A stretch of DNA of 64,000 nt from Barthelona sp. PCE (Eukaryota), in NCBI GenBank assembly GCA_040285745.1, contig JAUFOR010000001.1:1-64000 (forward strand). The letters run 5' to 3'. The translations under genes were made by a program, and so were the position numbers. The notes under the pieces are model-generated. The model had not been told where the DNA came from. It made no database searches and was given only the letters and a program-made list of their open reading frames with translations. Positions 45,486-54,209 of this stretch are shown here, piece by piece. How positions within the stretch are numbered: position 1 is the stretch's first letter; every line of letters begins with the position of its first letter.

Positions 45486-46631
45486 TGATCATATTTGCTT
45501 AACACAGTTTCAGATATGGAAGGAAATTTGAAAACAATTACTTGTTCAGTATTTGCTTTGCAAAAATGCTATCTATGTGACCTGTTCCTCTTTTAGTTCC
45601 TTTGCAACACATAGAAAACACACTTCTTAGTTTCAGATATGAAAAAATCTTTGCTTCTCAATTCATTCGTTCTTTTATTTTTAAAAGCTTTGTAGAAGCA
45701 GCAGTGGCAGTAATAATGCTTTTAACCGTATATAAACGCACTTTACTCGAATACTGAAAAAACTCAAGTACGTTAGTTTTTATGGTATGTTTGTGGTTAA
45801 AGGGGGGAACCCTTATTCGTGCGACCAAAAAATTGAAGTTAAAGCAACTACAAGTATTGTTAAAGTAATTCAGTCCCATATATCACTTAGTATGCCTAGA
45901 GTTAGAAGAAATGAGGAGTCATTGGCCCCTAGGGCAGATGGAGGGCTTGTGGTTGCTGAGGGCAACTATATATCAGTTTTTTCTGATTTGCAGAATAGCA
46001 CACTCAAATCCATGACTGAGAGTGACTTTATTGCTATACTTGACAATTCAATCCTGCTAAACAACACAGATAGAACTAAATTCGGCTTTGAAGATGGATA
46101 CTATAACACAACAAGTTTTGGTGAAAGTTCTGCCACAAACTCACTTGATCTTTGTGTGTACGACAACCTCTACCGCAACGACTTCACGAAGTCGGAATTC
46201 TTTCTGCCTGCTGAATGCTATCAAGAGCTTTCATTCGATGTTATTTTCCTCAACAAAACCCATTGTATTGTCGAATTACAGGGAGTTTCTGGCTCGACAG
46301 CGATGCGGCCATGCCTGGTGAACGTTTCAACGAACAAACACCGTGCTTTTGATGATTATGTGATGATATCAAACAAATCGACTGTGCAGTCCGGTATTGT
46401 TCTTTTCCGTTCAAATGAGACAAAAAAACTGTGTCTGTACAAGCCCAGCCCAGAAGACACGGTGGATTGTCCGCTGATCAGAGAGATTCATGATGTTGAC
46501 CCTTTCGACTTGAAAATTTTCAACTGCTTGAATGCAAAGGTCAATTTGCTTGCTAAAATCGACAATTTACACATCAGAAGTGCGTTTCTGGTCGACGAAC
46601 ACGGTTTCGTGATTAATCTACTTAATATGTT

Positions 46632-46764
46632 GGTGACATACAGGCGCTAGCCTTCAGACTTTATACTTGAGGTAGTAAACAGCGGAGGGGGACGAAGCGA
46701 ACCGTCATGTGTAGTAGGTGTCCGTAGGACCCGATACGGTTTTTCTTACCTTTTTCAAAAAAAA
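46632..46764 (+). repeat. Split direct repeat A1 (133 bp)
   Basis: Identical to 52482-52614 (GGTGACATAC...TTTTTCAAAAAAAA). Confidence 0.97.
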
Positions 46765-46801
46765 TCTTACTTTAGTATTGCTGCGCAAGAAATTAATTGC
46801 A

Positions 46802-48298
46802 ATGACATACTTTAGAGCGGAAAGGCAAACGAAAGAACAAGTTGCGCGCGCTATCCAGCATAGATGCGAGACGTATATTGCGCGCCTGAGTGTCGTGGTT
46901 ATGGAGACCTTGTGCAAGGTCCACGAGGCGGATCCCGCCGGTAAAGCCCACTTGATTGAGGCTCTCCCGAGTTACGGGTGCGGCGAGTACGCCGACGTAA
47001 TGCTCTCACCGTGCGTGTTGAGCGAGGACTTCCGGGGGTGGTTACAAGCATTGGGCGAAGATGAAAGTCAACAAGGTGTTGACAAGGTCCTTCCAGCAAT
47101 TTCCTTTAGCCTAGAGAGGTTTAGGGAACTTGCAAATCTTTTTGGCATGCGCCCATCCAAGTCATTAGCCAAGAATATTGAGGAGTCGGACATTAGAGGA
47201 GTCCGGGAGATGATTAGAGCTGCCGAAAATCACTGGAAGGCAGCTCCGGCTCTCATAACGCAGGAACTGGATGCGTTCAGGGCAGCAAAGAGGGAGGCCG
47301 ACAAGATCGAGGGAATATCGGACGTCGACAAGAAACAGCTCATCAAGACGATTACGCAACAGGTAACGCATGCGAAGGAGCAGGCGCTGAACGAGACGCG
47401 GAAGCAGACAATGGCCGCGTGGGAAGAAGAACCATCCGATGACGAGACCGACACCCAGCACACGTCTTCGAACGCAGGAATGAACACCGCCATGCAGATC
47501 GCAAGGGACGCTACCGCTTTGGTGAGCGAGACGATGAAAGAGGCCAGGCAGAGTAGGATGAGAGCCACAACCTATAACGAACCTTTCGATGCGGGCATCC
47601 AACAAGACAAACTACTCAGGAAGGTCAAACACCAATGGCAAAGAGGTCTGACATACGATAAGTTTACTGCCGCCATGGACAAGTTCCTCGAGGCGGAGAT
47701 AAAGCGCAACCCCACGATCTTCGCTGGCGATATTGATCTCGGGCTCTGGAAAGCGGACGACGTCCTTCCGGACGCGTTTGTTGAGGAGGTGACGGACGAC
47801 CACAAGGATAATTGGTTCCGCGAGTGGCAAATTCGTCTGAGGGACTTCAAGACGATCTACGAGGACAAGGTCGGATCCCAGTATGAACACGAGTGGCAAA
47901 CCAAGCGTTTGTACTTGCTGATGGAAGCCGCAGCGGAAATGGCGTTGGGAGACACTCTCCTACTAATCGGCAAGCTGTATGAGGAACGGCCACACCTCAT
48001 CCCGACCTTCATCGCTGCCGTCTCTCCATATGGTCCCAGCCGGGCCAACAGGGCGTCAGGTATCTACAACGACGAACTCAACGTCGACCACGTGCCTGAC
48101 AACTGGGTTGACGAGAATCGCGTGAAGCAATTCCTCACTAAGACGCTGGGAGTCGGTAGCTCCGGCATCATGGTCGAGTTTGACCCCACCGCCACCAAGA
48201 AGGCGTTCAACCATTCCACGAGAGCCCCCAAGCGCACGCACCGTCCTAAGACGCAAAAGAAGAAACAAGCGTTTAGCGCCAAAGAGGAGGAGAAGTGA
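46802..48298 (+). CDS. Retrotransposon ORF1, putative gag-like protein (498 aa)
   Basis: First ATG just after A1; helical with a basic C-terminal tail. The gag call rests on position only; no CCHC knuckle seen. Confidence 0.7.
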   Translation: MTYFRAERQTKEQVARAIQHRCETYIARLSVVVMETLCKVHEADPAGKAHLIEALPSYGCGEYADVMLSPCVLSEDFRGWLQALGEDESQQGVDKVLPAISFSLERFRELANLFGMRPSKSLAKNIEESDIRGVREMIRAAENHWKAAPALITQELDAFRAAKREADKIEGISDVDKKQLIKTITQQVTHAKEQALNETRKQTMAAWEEEPSDDETDTQHTSSNAGMNTAMQIARDATALVSETMKEARQSRMRATTYNEPFDAGIQQDKLLRKVKHQWQRGLTYDKFTAAMDKFLEAEIKRNPTIFAGDIDLGLWKADDVLPDAFVEEVTDDHKDNWFREWQIRLRDFKTIYEDKVGSQYEHEWQTKRLYLLMEAAAEMALGDTLLLIGKLYEERPHLIPTFIAAVSPYGPSRANRASGIYNDELNVDHVPDNWVDENRVKQFLTKTLGVGSSGIMVEFDPTATKKAFNHSTRAPKRTHRPKTQKKKQAFSAKEEEK

Positions 48299-48642
48299 AA
48301 TCGTTCGTCTCCCCCGCGCGCGATAGTAAATATCTATCCGACAAGGGCGTGGGAGACGCAAATGATCCCAATGCGGTCACAGCGCTCGCGGACAGGGTCG
48401 GCGAGCTCTCCATCGAGAACGTCAAATTGAAGAAGGAGATCAAGAGCCTCAAGAAGGAAATCCCTAAGAAGCAACTCAAAGCCGCGAAGATGGAACTTCG
48501 CGCAGCTACCAAACTCGTGGAGCTCGAAGACAAAAGACTAGAAGCCATCAAAGCTCGGGAAAGGAGCACACAGAAAACAAAAGCACCTGAGGACGTTAAA
48601 CGGGATAAGCCCCGTAAGGGAGAAAGCACCAACAGCTACTAG
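48295..48642 (+). CDS. Retrotransposon ORF2, small coiled-coil protein (115 codons, GTG start or reached by recoding)
   Basis: K/E-rich heptads (LSIENVKLKKEIKSLKKE); bridges ORF1 and ORF3 in a different frame; GTGA overlap with the ORF1 stop. Confidence 0.6.
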   Translation: MKSFVSPARDSKYLSDKGVGDANDPNAVTALADRVGELSIENVKLKKEIKSLKKEIPKKQLKAAKMELRAATKLVELEDKRLEAIKARERSTQKTKAPEDVKRDKPRKGESTNSY

Positions 48643-48652
48643 CGTGCAGAAG

Positions 48653-51600
48653 ATGATCTCCAAGGAGATCAACAAACTCAAACACGAGGTTGTAGATGAG
48701 CGGAATAACGTCCAAATCTCAAGAAATCCGAAGGAGGTAGTCGGCACAGACACCATGCAGTGGCCGGCCGCGGCGCCACCAGTAGCTCTGCTGAAGCACC
48801 TCCCACCCGACATCTTCCAGAAGGGCGGCCCAAGTCAACGAGTACTCAAAGAGGTGGTCCTAGGGGTTACCGGAACATGGGATATCCTCGGAACAGACCA
48901 GATGAAGATCAATTCAGCCGACACGCCCACGGAACAGTTCGTTAGGGACGCCGCGCGCGTCGCTGGCCTCAGCTGCGAAGAAATTGAGAAGACAGTCCGA
49001 CTGCTCGTGACTGAGGGCGTAACGCGCGACATGGTCGTTATCGAAGGAAAGAAGCCTCGCAGGCAGGAGCCAGTACGTCACTGGTACAAAGACGACGCTG
49101 TCGAATTGAACCTGGCCGTAACCGCGCTCAAAAGTAAGGACCTGATCAAAGAGGTCCCCATCGAAGAGATCGAGGACGAACGAAGGGCATTCATTTCCAT
49201 CGGCGCGGTCCCGAAGAATGCAGAACCGGACTCAAACAACATGTTCGCTCCGACGCAGAAGTTCGAATTTGACGTCACATCGCCGGACAACGAGCACAGG
49301 GTTATCGTCGACTGTACTAACACGAACTCTATGTTCGCCAACATTCCAATGGAACTCATCAAAACCCACTCTCTCGAGATTGTCATGGGTGGCAATCTCA
49401 TGTATTCCGTCGACGCAAAGGATGGTTTCACGCTCATTCCACTGGACGAAGAGCTACAAAAACTGTTCTCATTTACACACGAAGGTAAGCTTTATCAATG
49501 CACTAGAATGCCGTTCGGAGTTTCATTCGGCCCGGCCATCTTCGCCCGCATGATGAACCTGGCAACGACCGCAATGCGTGCGTTGGGATTCAACATCTGG
49601 AGCTACGTCGACGACGCTTTCGGATGGGAACGATCCCTCAGCAAAGCGAGGAACTCGATGATGCTGTTCATAATCATCGCGTCGAAACTTGGCATCAAGC
49701 TAAACTACAAAAAGTCCGTCAGTCCTTCGTACAAATTGGACATCATCGGCTACACGCTGAGCACCGACGACCAGTCTGACGGCGGCCGGCTAGTCTCAAC
49801 AATTAGACCGTCGGACAAGAACATCAGAAAGATCAGAGAGATGGCTCGCGTAATGCGAAATAGAATCGACACAGCAGAACAAATCCCTGTCAGGGACATC
49901 ATGAAGCTCGATGGCAAACTTGTATCATTTGCCAACGCCTCGACGATTCTTCAGCGGGTTCACCTACAGCTACAAGCAGTACTGAAGGATCTCGACGCCC
50001 AATACGATAACGCGATATTTGACTCGAGCAGGAACAAGGGCCTACGCCTTCTCCTACCTCTTCCACTAGCCGACGCACTCACGAGCATCGTTGAATGTAA
50101 CTTTGAACCGAAGACGCTGAGCTGCGGTAGAGCTAAGGTAACATTACTGAGCGACGCCATGAAGGACCAGAAACATATAGGCATTGGAGCGAAGGCATAC
50201 CCAGACGACGACCAAGAGCTCTCGTTCGAACTTCTCCACAGGATGGGAGTGAACGAGCAAGGAGCAAGAAGGATGTTGACACTTCTCGACGATCTGCCAG
50301 AACAGGAAAGAGTAGACATCGAGCAGAACACTGTCGCAACAATCGCGGAGCAGGAGATGGTACCGATCGTCGAGCTACTCAAGACTAAGGGCAGACAGCT
50401 GAGGAACACCGAAGTCGTCTGGTATTGCGACAACACGAACGTATGCGCCGCTGTCGCGAAGGGCTACAGCAAAAACAAGGTCCTCAACAAGGGGGCCCGC
50501 ATAGTGATGGAACTGTGCGAAATGTGGGACGTGATCGTCACACCAATCTACATCAACTCAGAACAGAATTATCTTCCAGACAGCATCTCAAGAGGAGCAT
50601 CGTCGGAGTCGTGGACCAACTCTACGACATTCGTGCACGAGATTCTCCCAGCTAGGGTAATCGAGTTCAAGACATCCGTCGTCGCAAGCCTCTACGAACC
50701 TGGACACATCCCAGCACTGTACGTCCGCGGTTTCCAGCCCACAAAAGGAAAGTCCAGGAGATCAACGAAAGCCGCACATGTGACAAGACAATGTCTCGGA
50801 CAAGACCTTATCTCTCTAGGCGAGTATGACCTCAAACGGAATGCGCTCAAGGTCGACAATGTTGCGAACGGGACTGCACACTGTACAGGTAAGCTCAAAA
50901 TCGTCGAAGGATTCGATGACACAAGATACACCGTCCCTCTATCGAATATGGCGATCATCACGAGAGACAACGAAAGAATCGAGGCAACAGTTCCGACTTA
51001 CTCCGCAGCCACAAGCTTAGAGATAGTCATTCTCAAAGTGTGCAGAACCGGCGCGGAAGTAGATGTGATCCTCCCCGGACCACTCCCGTCTTGCCCATTG
51101 TGGGCTACAATCGCACAAAAGACCATCCCATTAAGTGATGGATCCATAAAGATAAGAGTTACGAGAGAAAAGGTTCTCGGCGGCGAACCCGAGGACTACA
51201 AGCCCGCTGGAGCACGCACTCAGAACCCGGTACAGGTACGGGGCAAATCACTATCTCTGGCAGATCTGTTCGCCATCCCACCGTCGATGGACTACGACGA
51301 AGTGCTCGAACTCTTTCTGAAAAAAGGAGCGCACCAACCAACGAGGAACATGCTACATCGCTTCGGGAACTTCGTTCAAAAGGTGCACAGCACAGAAATA
51401 GTGGACGTCGCATGCCCAGGAAACGAAAAGAGACTTGAAGAGCTGATAATCGAGTTCAGATTCAGACTCGAACAGGAAACAAAATCGAAGAGGCGTGCGA
51501 ACGGCGACACCACCGAAGTATGGAGGTACACCTCAGATACGATTAACAGTTACATTTTCCACCTGCGTAAAGGACTGCTGGTTCTGAAAATGTTCATCAC

Positions 51601-52465
51601 CGACAAGAAATCTCTCCTCACGACCGAAGAACTCGAGCAACTCGTCCAGCTTAGGGCGGCAGTAATCAGATGCACACTGAGCGAGAGCTCAGAAACACAG
51701 AAATTCGCCATCAGCACGTCAGCAATCAGATTCCTGGCGGCAAGAGAGATTGAAGAGCTTAAAGCACTGGTCCAGGAAGGTACCACGAAGAAGAAGGCCC
51801 TTCAGAAGCTAAACAAAGTAAGAAGAAGAATTGCTATGATGTCATCAATGTACAACTTAGGATGCAGAGCGGCGTCTCTTGCCGCAGTCAAGACCCACCA
51901 AATTGAAGTCTCAAAATCCGGCGATGTCACGGTAACGCTGGACAAAGTGAAGAACCAACAGGGTCGACCAACCAGCTACATGATCCCCAGAAACGTATGG
52001 GAGCTGGGCACACTGCACGACTATTTAAACGACGCTGTGCAAAGAGCAAAAGAAGGAGGTAAAGAGTTTATTTTCTCGAACGGCGGAGAAGCCCAGAGCG
52101 TCTCGAATGCATTAAACACCATGTTCCGAGATTACAACGAGAAAATCAAGCAATCTGACCACAAGAATGCAAGCAAATTCAGAGTATTCAAAATGACAGC
52201 TCATGGCCTTAGAGCCGGCAGGGCAAAAGAGATAGCACAACATCCAGATGCGACTGTACGAGTATCAGCGCAAGGAATGGGTCTCTGGAAGGATGTGAAG
52301 GCGATGAACCTTGACTATCTCACGAAACCACTATTGACGTTTGAGGAACGAGAGGTGTTGAGTCCGATGGAATTGGAAGGATGGGTTTTAGGCCACTTCC
52401 CGGACGAAACACCCTCTACACGTGAAGGCGAGCCTTCCCACGTGAGCGTTCCCCGACGTCAATAA
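48653..52465 (+). CDS. Retrotransposon ORF3: RT-RNase H-(degenerate MTase-like)-tyrosine recombinase polyprotein (1270 aa from first ATG)
   Basis: RT: SVDAKDGF, RMPFG, YVDD (49604-49615). DIRS-type RNase H: LLSDA, AEQE, YCDN, NYLPDSISR. YR: LGCR, KVKN, HGLR, GLW, DYL. Confidence 0.93.
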   Translation: MISKEINKLKHEVVDERNNVQISRNPKEVVGTDTMQWPAAAPPVALLKHLPPDIFQKGGPSQRVLKEVVLGVTGTWDILGTDQMKINSADTPTEQFVRDAARVAGLSCEEIEKTVRLLVTEGVTRDMVVIEGKKPRRQEPVRHWYKDDAVELNLAVTALKSKDLIKEVPIEEIEDERRAFISIGAVPKNAEPDSNNMFAPTQKFEFDVTSPDNEHRVIVDCTNTNSMFANIPMELIKTHSLEIVMGGNLMYSVDAKDGFTLIPLDEELQKLFSFTHEGKLYQCTRMPFGVSFGPAIFARMMNLATTAMRALGFNIWSYVDDAFGWERSLSKARNSMMLFIIIASKLGIKLNYKKSVSPSYKLDIIGYTLSTDDQSDGGRLVSTIRPSDKNIRKIREMARVMRNRIDTAEQIPVRDIMKLDGKLVSFANASTILQRVHLQLQAVLKDLDAQYDNAIFDSSRNKGLRLLLPLPLADALTSIVECNFEPKTLSCGRAKVTLLSDAMKDQKHIGIGAKAYPDDDQELSFELLHRMGVNEQGARRMLTLLDDLPEQERVDIEQNTVATIAEQEMVPIVELLKTKGRQLRNTEVVWYCDNTNVCAAVAKGYSKNKVLNKGARIVMELCEMWDVIVTPIYINSEQNYLPDSISRGASSESWTNSTTFVHEILPARVIEFKTSVVASLYEPGHIPALYVRGFQPTKGKSRRSTKAAHVTRQCLGQDLISLGEYDLKRNALKVDNVANGTAHCTGKLKIVEGFDDTRYTVPLSNMAIITRDNERIEATVPTYSAATSLEIVILKVCRTGAEVDVILPGPLPSCPLWATIAQKTIPLSDGSIKIRVTREKVLGGEPEDYKPAGARTQNPVQVRGKSLSLADLFAIPPSMDYDEVLELFLKKGAHQPTRNMLHRFGNFVQKVHSTEIVDVACPGNEKRLEELIIEFRFRLEQETKSKRRANGDTTEVWRYTSDTINSYIFHLRKGLLVLKMFITDKKSLLTTEELEQLVQLRAAVIRCTLSESSETQKFAISTSAIRFLAAREIEELKALVQEGTTKKKALQKLNKVRRRIAMMSSMYNLGCRAASLAAVKTHQIEVSKSGDVTVTLDKVKNQQGRPTSYMIPRNVWELGTLHDYLNDAVQRAKEGGKEFIFSNGGEAQSVSNALNTMFRDYNEKIKQSDHKNASKFRVFKMTAHGLRAGRAKEIAQHPDATVRVSAQGMGLWKDVKAMNLDYLTKPLLTFEEREVLSPMELEGWVLGHFPDETPSTREGEPSHVSVPRRQ

Positions 52466-52481
52466 ACCTACTTCAGTATAA
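52383..52481 (+). repeat. Split direct repeat B1 (99 bp), overlapping the end of ORF3
   Basis: Identical to 52616-52714; contains AATAAA overlapping the ORF3 stop. Confidence 0.97.
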
Positions 52482-52614
52482 GGTGACATACAGGCGCTAG
52501 CCTTCAGACTTTATACTTGAGGTAGTAAACAGCGGAGGGGGACGAAGCGAACCGTCATGTGTAGTAGGTGTCCGTAGGACCCGATACGGTTTTTCTTACC
52601 TTTTTCAAAAAAAA
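52482..52614 (+). repeat. Split direct repeat A2
   Basis: Identical to A1; followed by one extra A (52615). Confidence 0.97.
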
Positions 52615-52615
52615 A

Positions 52616-52714
52616 GGGTTTTAGGCCACTTCCCGGACGAAACACCCTCTACACGTGAAGGCGAGCCTTCCCACGTGAGCGTTCCCCGACGTCAATAAAC
52701 CTACTTCAGTATAA
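52616..52714 (+). repeat. Split direct repeat B2 (right end of element)
   Basis: Identical to B1. Confidence 0.97.
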
Positions 52715-54209
52715 TCCATTATTGAAGGAAGCCCGTCTTTCAAGCAATATAAAAGCATTTGTTCTTGAGAAACTGACCGATGAAACTCTTAAAATAACGT
52801 TTTTTATGGGTTCTCTGTTCAGGAAAAACGTTTTCAAAGGACATAGCATCGCAATTGAATTTGGCAAGTTTAGAAAAACAATGGGTATACTGCCCTGTAA
52901 CTTATTCTATTCGACTCCCACTGACATCGACTTGGAATCGTTGGATTTTGCTAACAAAACTGCTATCTATGGAGCAAAGAGTGAAAAAAGTGTACTTGGC
53001 CGCCTTTCCTTTCTGGATAGATCATGCACTTCTTTTTCTCTTTCACAGCATCCACAGCGCACACAGTACAACTCGTGCTTGACGTATTTTGATGATATTA
53101 CTATGGGACTCGTTTACTGTTATCTTGACAGAGATCTCATCATCTTGCAGCCCTTCAATCCTGACCTTAAAGACAGCGACTATAACATCTTGGTGAATGA
53201 ACTTAAAACACCCCATTTCAGGGATGGTCGTACCATTTTCTACGCAACTGTCTTTTGCCATGAAAATAAGCTCTGTCATTTGGAGCTTTGTTGTGGAGAG
53301 GATGGCGTGACTGTGCAGCCGCTGACCAGAGTCAGAGGTGAACTACTTGACTGGATGTATGGAAGATCATTGGTACTTGGTGCTGGTGGTGTGTATCTCG
53401 GTGAAGAGCTGATTGTTGACAACGAAGGTGCGGTTATAGAATGTCACAATGTCTGTGCTGCAGGAGAGAATACCCTTGTCGTGTCACTGCCCGAGAATGC
53501 CGTGTTTGTTAGATTTGATAGCGATGGAAGAATTGAAACCAGGATTAAAATCCCATCCGAGGGCGAAACGCATCGCCTTTGCCCGCACCATATGCGCGAA
53601 GACCATAACTTTCAATTATTTCAGGTTTCTGAAGGTTTCAACGATTTCAGCATTAAGTGTATTAATTGGGATACTGGGGTCATTAGTAACTCTGTTAGTG
53701 TTCCTTCGGAGGGATACTTCACATCTGGAAACAACATTGAATTTGCTTTTCAAAAAACAGAGTTCGAATTCGCTATGGACGGTGAGCTTACTTTTGAAGA
53801 CCGGAAAAGTAGGCTTAAGTTATCTGTAGAACATGACTACGGGCAGGATTGCACACAAATTTTTGAGTTTGATAACTTTGTGTGTTCTGTATCTACATTT
53901 CCTACATCATTTCATGCGAAAGATGAAAAAATTACTGTGACATATGATATGGCTCATTTTGTGTCCAAAGCGGACATTCGCCATCTCTACTTTGACGTCA
54001 GTGAATGCTGCAAGATGGTTAACGAGTGTAAATTTGGTGAATAATTATGCAGGTTTACTTAATTCACTGTAAATAATAAATTTTTGACTTTTTAACAGCT
54101 TTTGGTTAACGATACCCCTCACCTTGGCTATTTACGAAATGTAAAAGTTACTTTTATGCTAAGAATCTTTAAACTCCTTTCAAGTCAGTAGTACAGTCAA
54201 TTTATAAAG

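Follow-up and report, generated by a model that had tools for sequence, protein, structure and literature searches.

The first 64,000 nucleotides of contig JAUFOR010000001.1 from Barthelona sp. PCE (hereinafter the window, i.e., the whole stretch of DNA that was analyzed) contain a 6083-bp tyrosine recombinase (YR) retrotransposon, here assigned to a family termed F1, which interrupts a host gene. Comparison of its copies across the genome shows that F1 can enter at any dinucleotide step, its ends being fixed and no target bases deleted, and it is very likely that it does so with neither a target duplication nor a core shared by donor and target. Further, the donor junction at which the end of repeat B meets the start of repeat A (B|A) is predicted from computed folds to be capable of folding back as a single strand into a stem, a bubble of about 7 nt and a second stem, the outer of the two stems stopping at the crossover. 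That a YR can tolerate heterology is already known from the bacterial IntDOT, Tn916 and Tn1545 (PMC2817482) and would not be novel in itself; what would be new is the fold-back at the donor junction, which offers a candidate mechanism. The original prediction, made on the sequence of the window, had proposed integration without overlap homology, and this is borne out by homology and duplication at chance levels, the lack of a target bias and nested copies with exact empty alleles; the fold-back at the junction had escaped it.

Insertion sites of the F1 family

The element, its repeats and the interrupted gene are laid out as follows:

46632..52714, +: whole element of family F1, 6083 bp, a YR retrotransposon with the layout A1-ORFs-B1-A2-B2 (ORF, open reading frame), one of five full-length copies
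46632..46764, +: repeat A1, 133 bp, beginning GGTGAC and with an A-run at its end
52383..52481, +: repeat B1, 99 bp, with the final bases TATAA
52482..52615, +: repeat A2
52616..52714, +: repeat B2, the right end of the element
45787..46631, +: 5' part of the host gene, of a lineage-specific family with no Pfam match
52715..54044, +: 3' part of the host gene

The left junction (46631|46632) reads AATATGTT|GGTGAC, the right junction (52714|52715) GTATAA|TCCATTA and the internal B1|A2 junction (52481|52482) TATAA|GGTG, all three exactly as first written. Joining the flanks yields a single open frame of 724 codons from the ATG at 45787, or of 689 codons from the next in-frame ATG, the latter reproducing the length originally given. 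This restored frame had been taken to confirm both ends to the base; however, it stays open after shifts of -3 and +3 as well and hence cannot by itself locate the ends. Over the junction, the joined protein can be aligned gaplessly with six paralogues (346 ORFs searched) sharing the motif VNL..FP.LK, which rules out the loss or gain of a codon as well as the duplication of a single base. It is the repeat copies, the other genomic copies and this alignment that locate the element ends. A 1-bp duplication of T at the window site was considered and rejected, since the shared Phe codon needs both T residues and a one-base shift closes the frame. Of the ORFs cited earlier for the FP motif, ORF 66 is a significant homologue (E 3e-13), whereas ORFs 17487 and 31950 are absent from the matches at E<=1e-3 among the same 346 ORFs; both do carry FP words, that of 17487 reading RFPQLG. 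The host gene belongs to a large lineage-specific family of about 600-720 aa proteins with the VNL..FP.LK motif and often an MPR start, with members at 66-1919 and 45787-54044 in the window, these having no Pfam match, and at L146, L086, L116, L085 and L077. Contigs from three sequencing runs reach only the interior of the element and display no joint at the window site, and so speak neither for nor against the predicted empty allele.

That no bases are shared at the crossover in the window is true as first stated, but is unremarkable singly, as 11.1 of 20 random sites would be expected to behave in the same way. Instead, the weight of the coreless result comes from 20 paired sites at which homology and duplication jointly stay at chance level although the ends of the element are always the same. 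The 27 left ends counted (excluding L016 and one internal tandem start) all begin at the same base (25 with GGTG, one with GGTA and one with GGAG), and a 28th, hidden by a nested insertion, is intact. Likewise, all 25 right ends, found with anchors that left the last 6 bases free, finish in ATAA. Summed over the 20 paired sites, which exclude L013 and L015, the match to the donor junction amounts to 13 bases against 14.2 expected and the apparent target duplication to 12 against 10.8 expected. No position from -8 to +8 departs from background in 27 left and 24 right flanks, the lowest p value for a donor match being 0.058 at +1. The original prediction had named duplications or a consistent shared core at other insertions as evidence that would speak against it; both were looked for over the 20 paired sites and neither exceeded chance.

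Empty alleles add direct comparisons. Where F1 is nested in the B repeat of family F2, and likewise in that of family F4, uninterrupted copies read exactly the predicted join. At a third nested site, in an A-run of family F6, 120/120 bases match one copy, the others showing one-base run differences, and at a fourth site comparison with 81% identical copies reveals no gap at the join. Further, all three gene-disrupting sites rejoin in frame, namely the window gene, an ABC-2 transporter gene, the short first part of which is restored by joining the flanks, and an unnamed 650-codon ORF. A proposed preference for genes of the family interrupted in the window is not supported, as only 3/22 paired sites restore a long ORF; the remaining 19 do not, and several of them lie in other repeats. 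Two of these 22 sites (L013 and L015) misfit a simple insertion and look rearranged, with flanks from different repeats or a duplicated end.

Some loci have unusual structures. At L013:1500-1492 (-) the last 9 bases of an F1 solo unit are repeated in tandem behind it, with both flanks from unrelated sequences, and L046:2560-2179 (-) is an A-B(1-13)-A-B tandem unit, possibly from a solo-in-solo insertion followed by deletion. L059 (G000:C1:598147) and L020 (G000:C8:1307250) hold the two halves of one F1 A repeat on different contigs, each adjoining an F4 unit, which suggests ectopic recombination or conversion between solo units. L016, at first a candidate for a copy with its spacer replaced by target DNA, is actually a nested F6 insertion.

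Beyond F1, the genome contains five further split-repeat families, F2-F5 with coding copies and F6 with solo units only. There are thus at least six such families in a compact 10.2-Mb genome (e.g., L016, L030, L034, L042, L046, L095, L108), and across them solo units, often nested in one another, far outnumber full copies. The ends of F2 are as blunt as those of F1 (8/8 left and 8/8 right), and ends are also fixed in F4, F5 and F6. Nested insertions of F3, F4 and F6 join exactly where the empty sequence is known, except for one truncated F6 copy. A CAT or ATCA core was considered for F3 and abandoned, being present at two nested sites and reduced to A at a third and to nothing at a fourth. In an F3 solo unit at L076:1501-1756 the terminal A is missing and a T stands on either side, reflecting either a point change or a mismatch footprint. 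A further dispersed and tandem repeat adjoins F2, F4 and F5 copies (L050:9625-9763, L051:9025-9238, L057, L043:2311-2422), and in L051 it lies beside a stretch that, read by eye, is tRNA-like.

A predicted fold-back at the B|A junction

The putative donor site in the window and its predicted parts are:

52468..52525, +: putative fold-back donor site spanning the B1|A2 junction, predicted from computed folds
52468-52481: outer arm, ending at the crossover
52482-52488: 7-nt spacer, followed by a 3-nt bulge
52492-52503: inner stem-loop
52504-52510: distal 7-nt spacer
52511-52525: distal outer arm

When folded with DNA energies, the F1, F3 and F4 junctions share an arrangement in which the 5' arm of the outer stem stops at or beside the crossover and is followed by a bubble, of 7+7 nt in F3 and F4, and by an inner stem. 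Across junctions, the distance from arm to arm ranges from about 22 to 46 nt. A geometric score for the stem-bubble-stem arrangement, itself drawn from F1-F5, ranks the true cut among element positions in the top 0.07% in F1, 1% in F3, 0.02% in F4 and 0.4% in F5. The true cut is the best of nine neighbouring positions in four of these five families and is tied in F2. F6, which was discovered after the score had been fixed and the junction of which was reconstructed from both ends of a solo unit, scores 9.5 (top 0.03% of host positions); its outer stem has 9 bp and stops at the cut. Additionally, at 16/16 junctions the match of the B end to the distal arm, which was scanned at more positions, is no worse than that to the near arm. 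Over the six families the fold is clear in three (one of them discovered after the test was fixed), weaker in two and absent in one. No compensatory changes were seen among the F1 variants.

As an outside test, 80 metagenome loci encoding related YRs were assembled, of which 15 with a downstream direct repeat were scored; matches to reverse transcriptase (RT) or RNase H (RH) lie upstream of the YR at 13 of the 19 loci checked. A looser measure, namely pairing of the last 6 bases of B with A, which was picked after the metagenome folds had been viewed, was applied to a set of nine. For this set five of the 15, in which B2 runs into a poly-A tail or the contig end, were set aside, L216, L219, L221 and L227 were omitted as kin of others (L219 and L221 do not fold), and L165, L185 and L206 were added from the start of A. 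By this measure 6/9 stand at <=0.03 against whole-contig controls and 5/9 at a local rank of <=0.05 (Fisher 1.4e-5), the Fisher values being indicative only as the control windows overlap. In most of F1, F3, F4, F6 and several metagenome elements, pairing is at its maximum no more than 2 nt from the cut. Two-sided changes occur in 11/16 pairs over seven chosen junctions with a covariation score reached by 0/500 shuffles, for a structure derived from the same seven sequences, some of which are kin. In one metagenome family with three copies, one copy has no shared base at either end.

The dependences just noted (a score drawn from the families that it ranks, a measure chosen after inspection, overlapping controls and a structure tested on its own sources) weigh against the fold-back, as do several further results. 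F2 has no convincing fold, with 11% of positions scoring as high, and yet its insertion is equally blunt. F3 and F5 pass the geometric score but fail an ensemble measure (0.08 and 0.02), and F2, F3 and F5 do not stand out by the pairing of the last 6 bases. The folding energies of the F1-F5 junctions show no excess over shuffled sequences (p 0.07-0.88), and high scores also occur at 2/10 repeat boundaries that are not crossovers. Outside this genome, the fixed geometric score passes 0/15 metagenome junctions at 5%, a failure attributable to inner hairpins longer than the score allows, and was discarded as a general test; under the looser measure 4/9 elements fail against local controls.

Proposed modes of strand exchange at the junction

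In the standing model for elements of this order, a double-stranded circle recombines with the target at a short core that is identical in both (PMC3266345), and the specificity of DIRS-order recombinases is described as being without experimental study as of 2020 (PMC7192593). F1 breaks the core rule over many sites with real empty alleles. The best model for this, with about even chances of being right, is a folded single-stranded donor, a single strand exchange and replicative resolution. Reverse transcription would yield a cDNA with a B|A junction, which could fold back or extrude as a hairpin with the B end pairing to the distal arm in A, leaving an unpaired bubble of about 7 nt beyond the outer stem and then the inner stem. 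The two stems would serve as two YR-binding sites and the bubble as the spacer, as in the integron attC. The YR would nick the B|A boundary and one target strand and exchange a single pair of strands. If no second exchange takes place, the spacer and the target need not match. The branched product would be resolved by host replication or repair, such that each copy would start with the whole donor spacer and finish at the last base of B.

The right ends bear on this model. A two-strand exchange with a mismatched spacer followed by replication predicts two end types, each in about half of the copies, and the second type, in which the first bases of A are missing on the left and carried at the right end, is found at 0/25 F1 right ends; its absence points to either a one-strand reaction or fully one-sided repair. 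Canonical YR geometry points to the sense strand as the substrate. DIRS-1 cDNA is reported to be single-stranded, and it is antisense (PMC7192593), in conflict with this expectation. As precedents, the single-stranded DIRS-1 cDNA fits the model, and folded single strands, one exchange and replicative resolution are described for attC and CTX-phi; integrons and CTX-phi are the systems for which single-strand YR chemistry has so far been reported, and attC still requires an AAC microhomology (PMC4792948). This requirement and the strand conflict both count against the folded single-stranded donor, as does the structure model of the F1 YR, which is nearer to Cre (Z 11.4) than to the integron integrase (Z 8.1). 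The folded donor is put forward from computed folds and pair counts.

The principal alternative, which we consider rather unlikely, is a double-stranded circle undergoing heterology-tolerant two-strand exchange, as in Tn916 or CTnDOT, followed by one-sided mismatch repair. Under it the B end and a box 6-7 bp into A would form an ordinary YR core, with the distal inverted arms as accessory binding sites. A double-stranded circle is also what the standard DIRS model uses (PMC3266345, PMC7192593), and the alternative is in line with the Cre-like YR, with a partial inverted match 6 bp into A in F1-F5 (3-4 of 7 bases), with the lack of a good fold in F2 and with the F3 copy that has T for the terminal A and T on the opposite side as a possible mismatch footprint. 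However, the repair would have to be fully one-sided, given the right ends of F1 and the fixed ends of F2, F4, F5 and F6. Further, pairing is kept in the inner stems even though their sequence is unlike that of the outer stems and varies from family to family.

Less probable still is that the hairpin acts on RNA or during reverse transcription, in template switching, priming, end definition or packaging, with the YR joining a linear or nicked cDNA end to the target in a homology-free manner like a type IB topoisomerase. DNA and RNA hairpins are indistinguishable from sequence, DIRS-1 cDNA is mostly linear (PMC7192593), and type IB topoisomerases are among the structures with which the YR model can be aligned (Z 7-8). 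This leaves unexplained, however, why the outer stem should stop at the crossover beside a spacer-sized bubble in F1, F3, F4, F6 and several metagenome elements.

It is very improbable that the precision is partly illusory, with small deletions or 1-bp cores hidden among mostly unseen empty sites: the window's own empty allele was not obtained, L013 and L015 do not fit, the sister families show a weak bias (F5 +1 A/T 14/14, F6 +1 purine 10/10, F4 -3 T 10/13) and in two metagenome families 2/3 left flanks share 3-5 bases with the B end, but wherever a close empty copy is available for an F1 site the join is exact (two exact, one within an A-run), the fourth is gapless and the interrupted genes all rejoin in frame.

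A broader proposal, that split-direct-repeat YR retrotransposons in general, from the metamonad to the unrelated metagenome elements, integrate via an attC-like folded single-stranded cDNA junction and one strand exchange, is tentative and somewhat less probable than the folded single-stranded donor in F1 itself. If the latter holds, single-strand YR chemistry would extend to eukaryotic retroelements. The broader proposal would amount to a retroelement-encoded counterpart of integron chemistry in eukaryotes that requires no target homology and leaves no scar. It would also account for the B1-A2 layout: the recombination site would exist only where the B end meets the start of A, and would be split at both ends of an integrated copy. 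An integrase that leaves no scar and does not depend on the target could then be useful as a tool, and the fold-back junction makes the insertion question directly testable with oligonucleotides. If only the sequence-level result holds, F1 would be a metamonad YR retrotransposon whose lack of a core is well documented, which is of moderate interest. No description of a coreless Ngaro target or an attC-like junction was found in the literature searched, and, as the primary Ngaro papers lie outside that search, a coreless target may have been remarked on earlier. Term searches of PMC6681497, PMC9210276, PMC4157794, PMC13465315 and PMC2632668, as far as these sources were available, turned up nothing about the target cores of Ngaro elements or about folds at their junctions.

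Architecture and relation to known elements

The coding regions of the window element, and the loci at which the two ORFs share a frame, are:

46802..48298, +: ORF1, 498 aa, without a Pfam match and assigned as Gag solely from its position, in the same frame as ORF2
48653..52465, +: ORF2, 1270 aa, holding RT, RNase-H-like motifs, a region of about 250 aa with no Pfam match and the YR
L039:686-6433 (+), L042:1296-7550 (+), L050:3764-9598 (-) and L051:3147-8960 (-): ORF1 and RT-RH-YR ORF in the same frame

The domain order on the one strand is Gag-RT-RH-YR, with Gag assigned by position. In ORF2 the RT spans aa 238-369 (PF00078, E 1e-14), the RNase H was recognised by eye from its conserved acidic motifs only, and the YR lies at aa 1045-1196 (PF00589, E 0.002, short of the cut-off). 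The R, K, HxxR, W and Y residues of the YR are invariant in five families of this genome, and by profile and structure model it is nearest to Cre (root-mean-square deviation 3.9 over 174 residues; model confidence, pLDDT, 67). The region of about 250 aa between RNase H and YR (50597-51331 in the window) is present in F1-F5 and has no Pfam match and only sub-threshold Atlas leads. RT, RH and YR form a single ORF in F1, F3, F4 and F5, and the YR has no third ORF of its own. In four families this ORF is in frame with ORF1 with one stop codon between them, which suggests stop-codon read-through to one polyprotein. Rfam gave 0 matches over the whole element.

F1 has been recently active. In the window element the repeat copies are 100% identical (A over 133 bp, B over 99 bp), A1=A2 and B1=B2 in 5/5 full-length copies, three of the five differ by 0-1 substitutions, and many solo AB units are found among 38 matches in the genome. 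At 48310 and 48618, within short base runs between ORF1 and ORF2, the window copy carries single-base differences of its own; the extra base at 48618 is missing from the contig of one sequencing run, and the differences may be assembly errors or copy differences.

A 95% identical protein carries the label Barthelona sp. PCE, a free-living metamonad. Homologue searches with the polyprotein gave only proteins labelled as the same organism and distant Gypsy-like RTs, and the searches brought up no named reference element of the Ngaro, PAT, VIPER or DIRS kind. A YR profile matched 44 proteins; among the best 10, which were looked up, five clusters are labelled as the same organism and one as Dysnectes. 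This nearest YR outside Barthelona sp. PCE (P0008) is labelled Dysnectes brevis (E 9e-9), and related elements may thus occur in other metamonads; used as a query, it found no relatives. Scans of viral contigs confirmed no related YR, one of them giving 9 matches at 24-31% identity.

By structure, F1 is probably a Ngaro-like YR retrotransposon, with split direct repeats and internal repeats downstream of the YR. It shares with Ngaro elements of the DIRS order (e.g., in Cafeteria burkhardae, PMC8547959) the A1-ORFs-B1-A2-B2 repeats, the Gag-RT/RH-YR order and many solo AB units. Ngaro elements have no methyltransferase domain; in F1-F5, a Pfam search up to E 10 found none in the RH-YR interval, which includes the region of about 250 aa with no Pfam match. 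Ngaro is described with a separate YR ORF, a usual rather than a strict feature, whereas in F1 one ORF, which follows the stop of ORF1 in the same frame, encodes RT, RH and YR; some TATE copies are reported to have such a single ORF (PMC6681497). DIRS1-like elements resemble F1 in YR integration without target duplication and in an internal copy of the end-to-end junction (PMC3266345, PMC7192593), but have inverted repeats, an internal complementary region (ICR), a methyltransferase domain and a 3-bp core common to junction and target (PMC3266345), as opposed to direct repeats only and zero core in F1. PAT-like elements share the split direct repeats, and their methyltransferase domain was not detected in F1 by Pfam. 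In VIPER the YR precedes the RT. F1 differs in having the YR behind the RT and in its host label, a metamonad rather than a kinetoplastid.

The likeness to integron attC/IntI and CTX-phi/XerCD, where a folded single-stranded donor with two stems and an unpaired spacer undergoes one exchange (PMC4792948), is a functional analogy only. Unlike F1, the donor of which would be a retro-cDNA, attC is bacterial and uses the AAC microhomology with a defined partner site; its conserved GTT/AAC crossover triplet has no counterpart in F1, where the junction is ATAA|GG and shares no bases with the target. IntI has an I2 helix, of which the F1 YR model gave no evidence. The F4 YR was at first considered to resemble IntI in its I2 insertion, a likeness that finds no support in the model made for F1. 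Coupling sequences of the Tn916 type leave variable ends, and such ends are absent in F1. IntDOT, Tn916 and Tn1545 recombine sites with a non-identical overlap, as F1 does; they are, however, double-stranded DNA elements, and IntDOT needs identity for the first exchange (PMC2817482). Cryptons, like F1, are eukaryotic YR elements without a true target duplication, but they are DNA transposons with no RT and have a 5-bp donor-target match (CACCG / CAYCG) (bioRxiv 10.1101/2022.05.23.493040).

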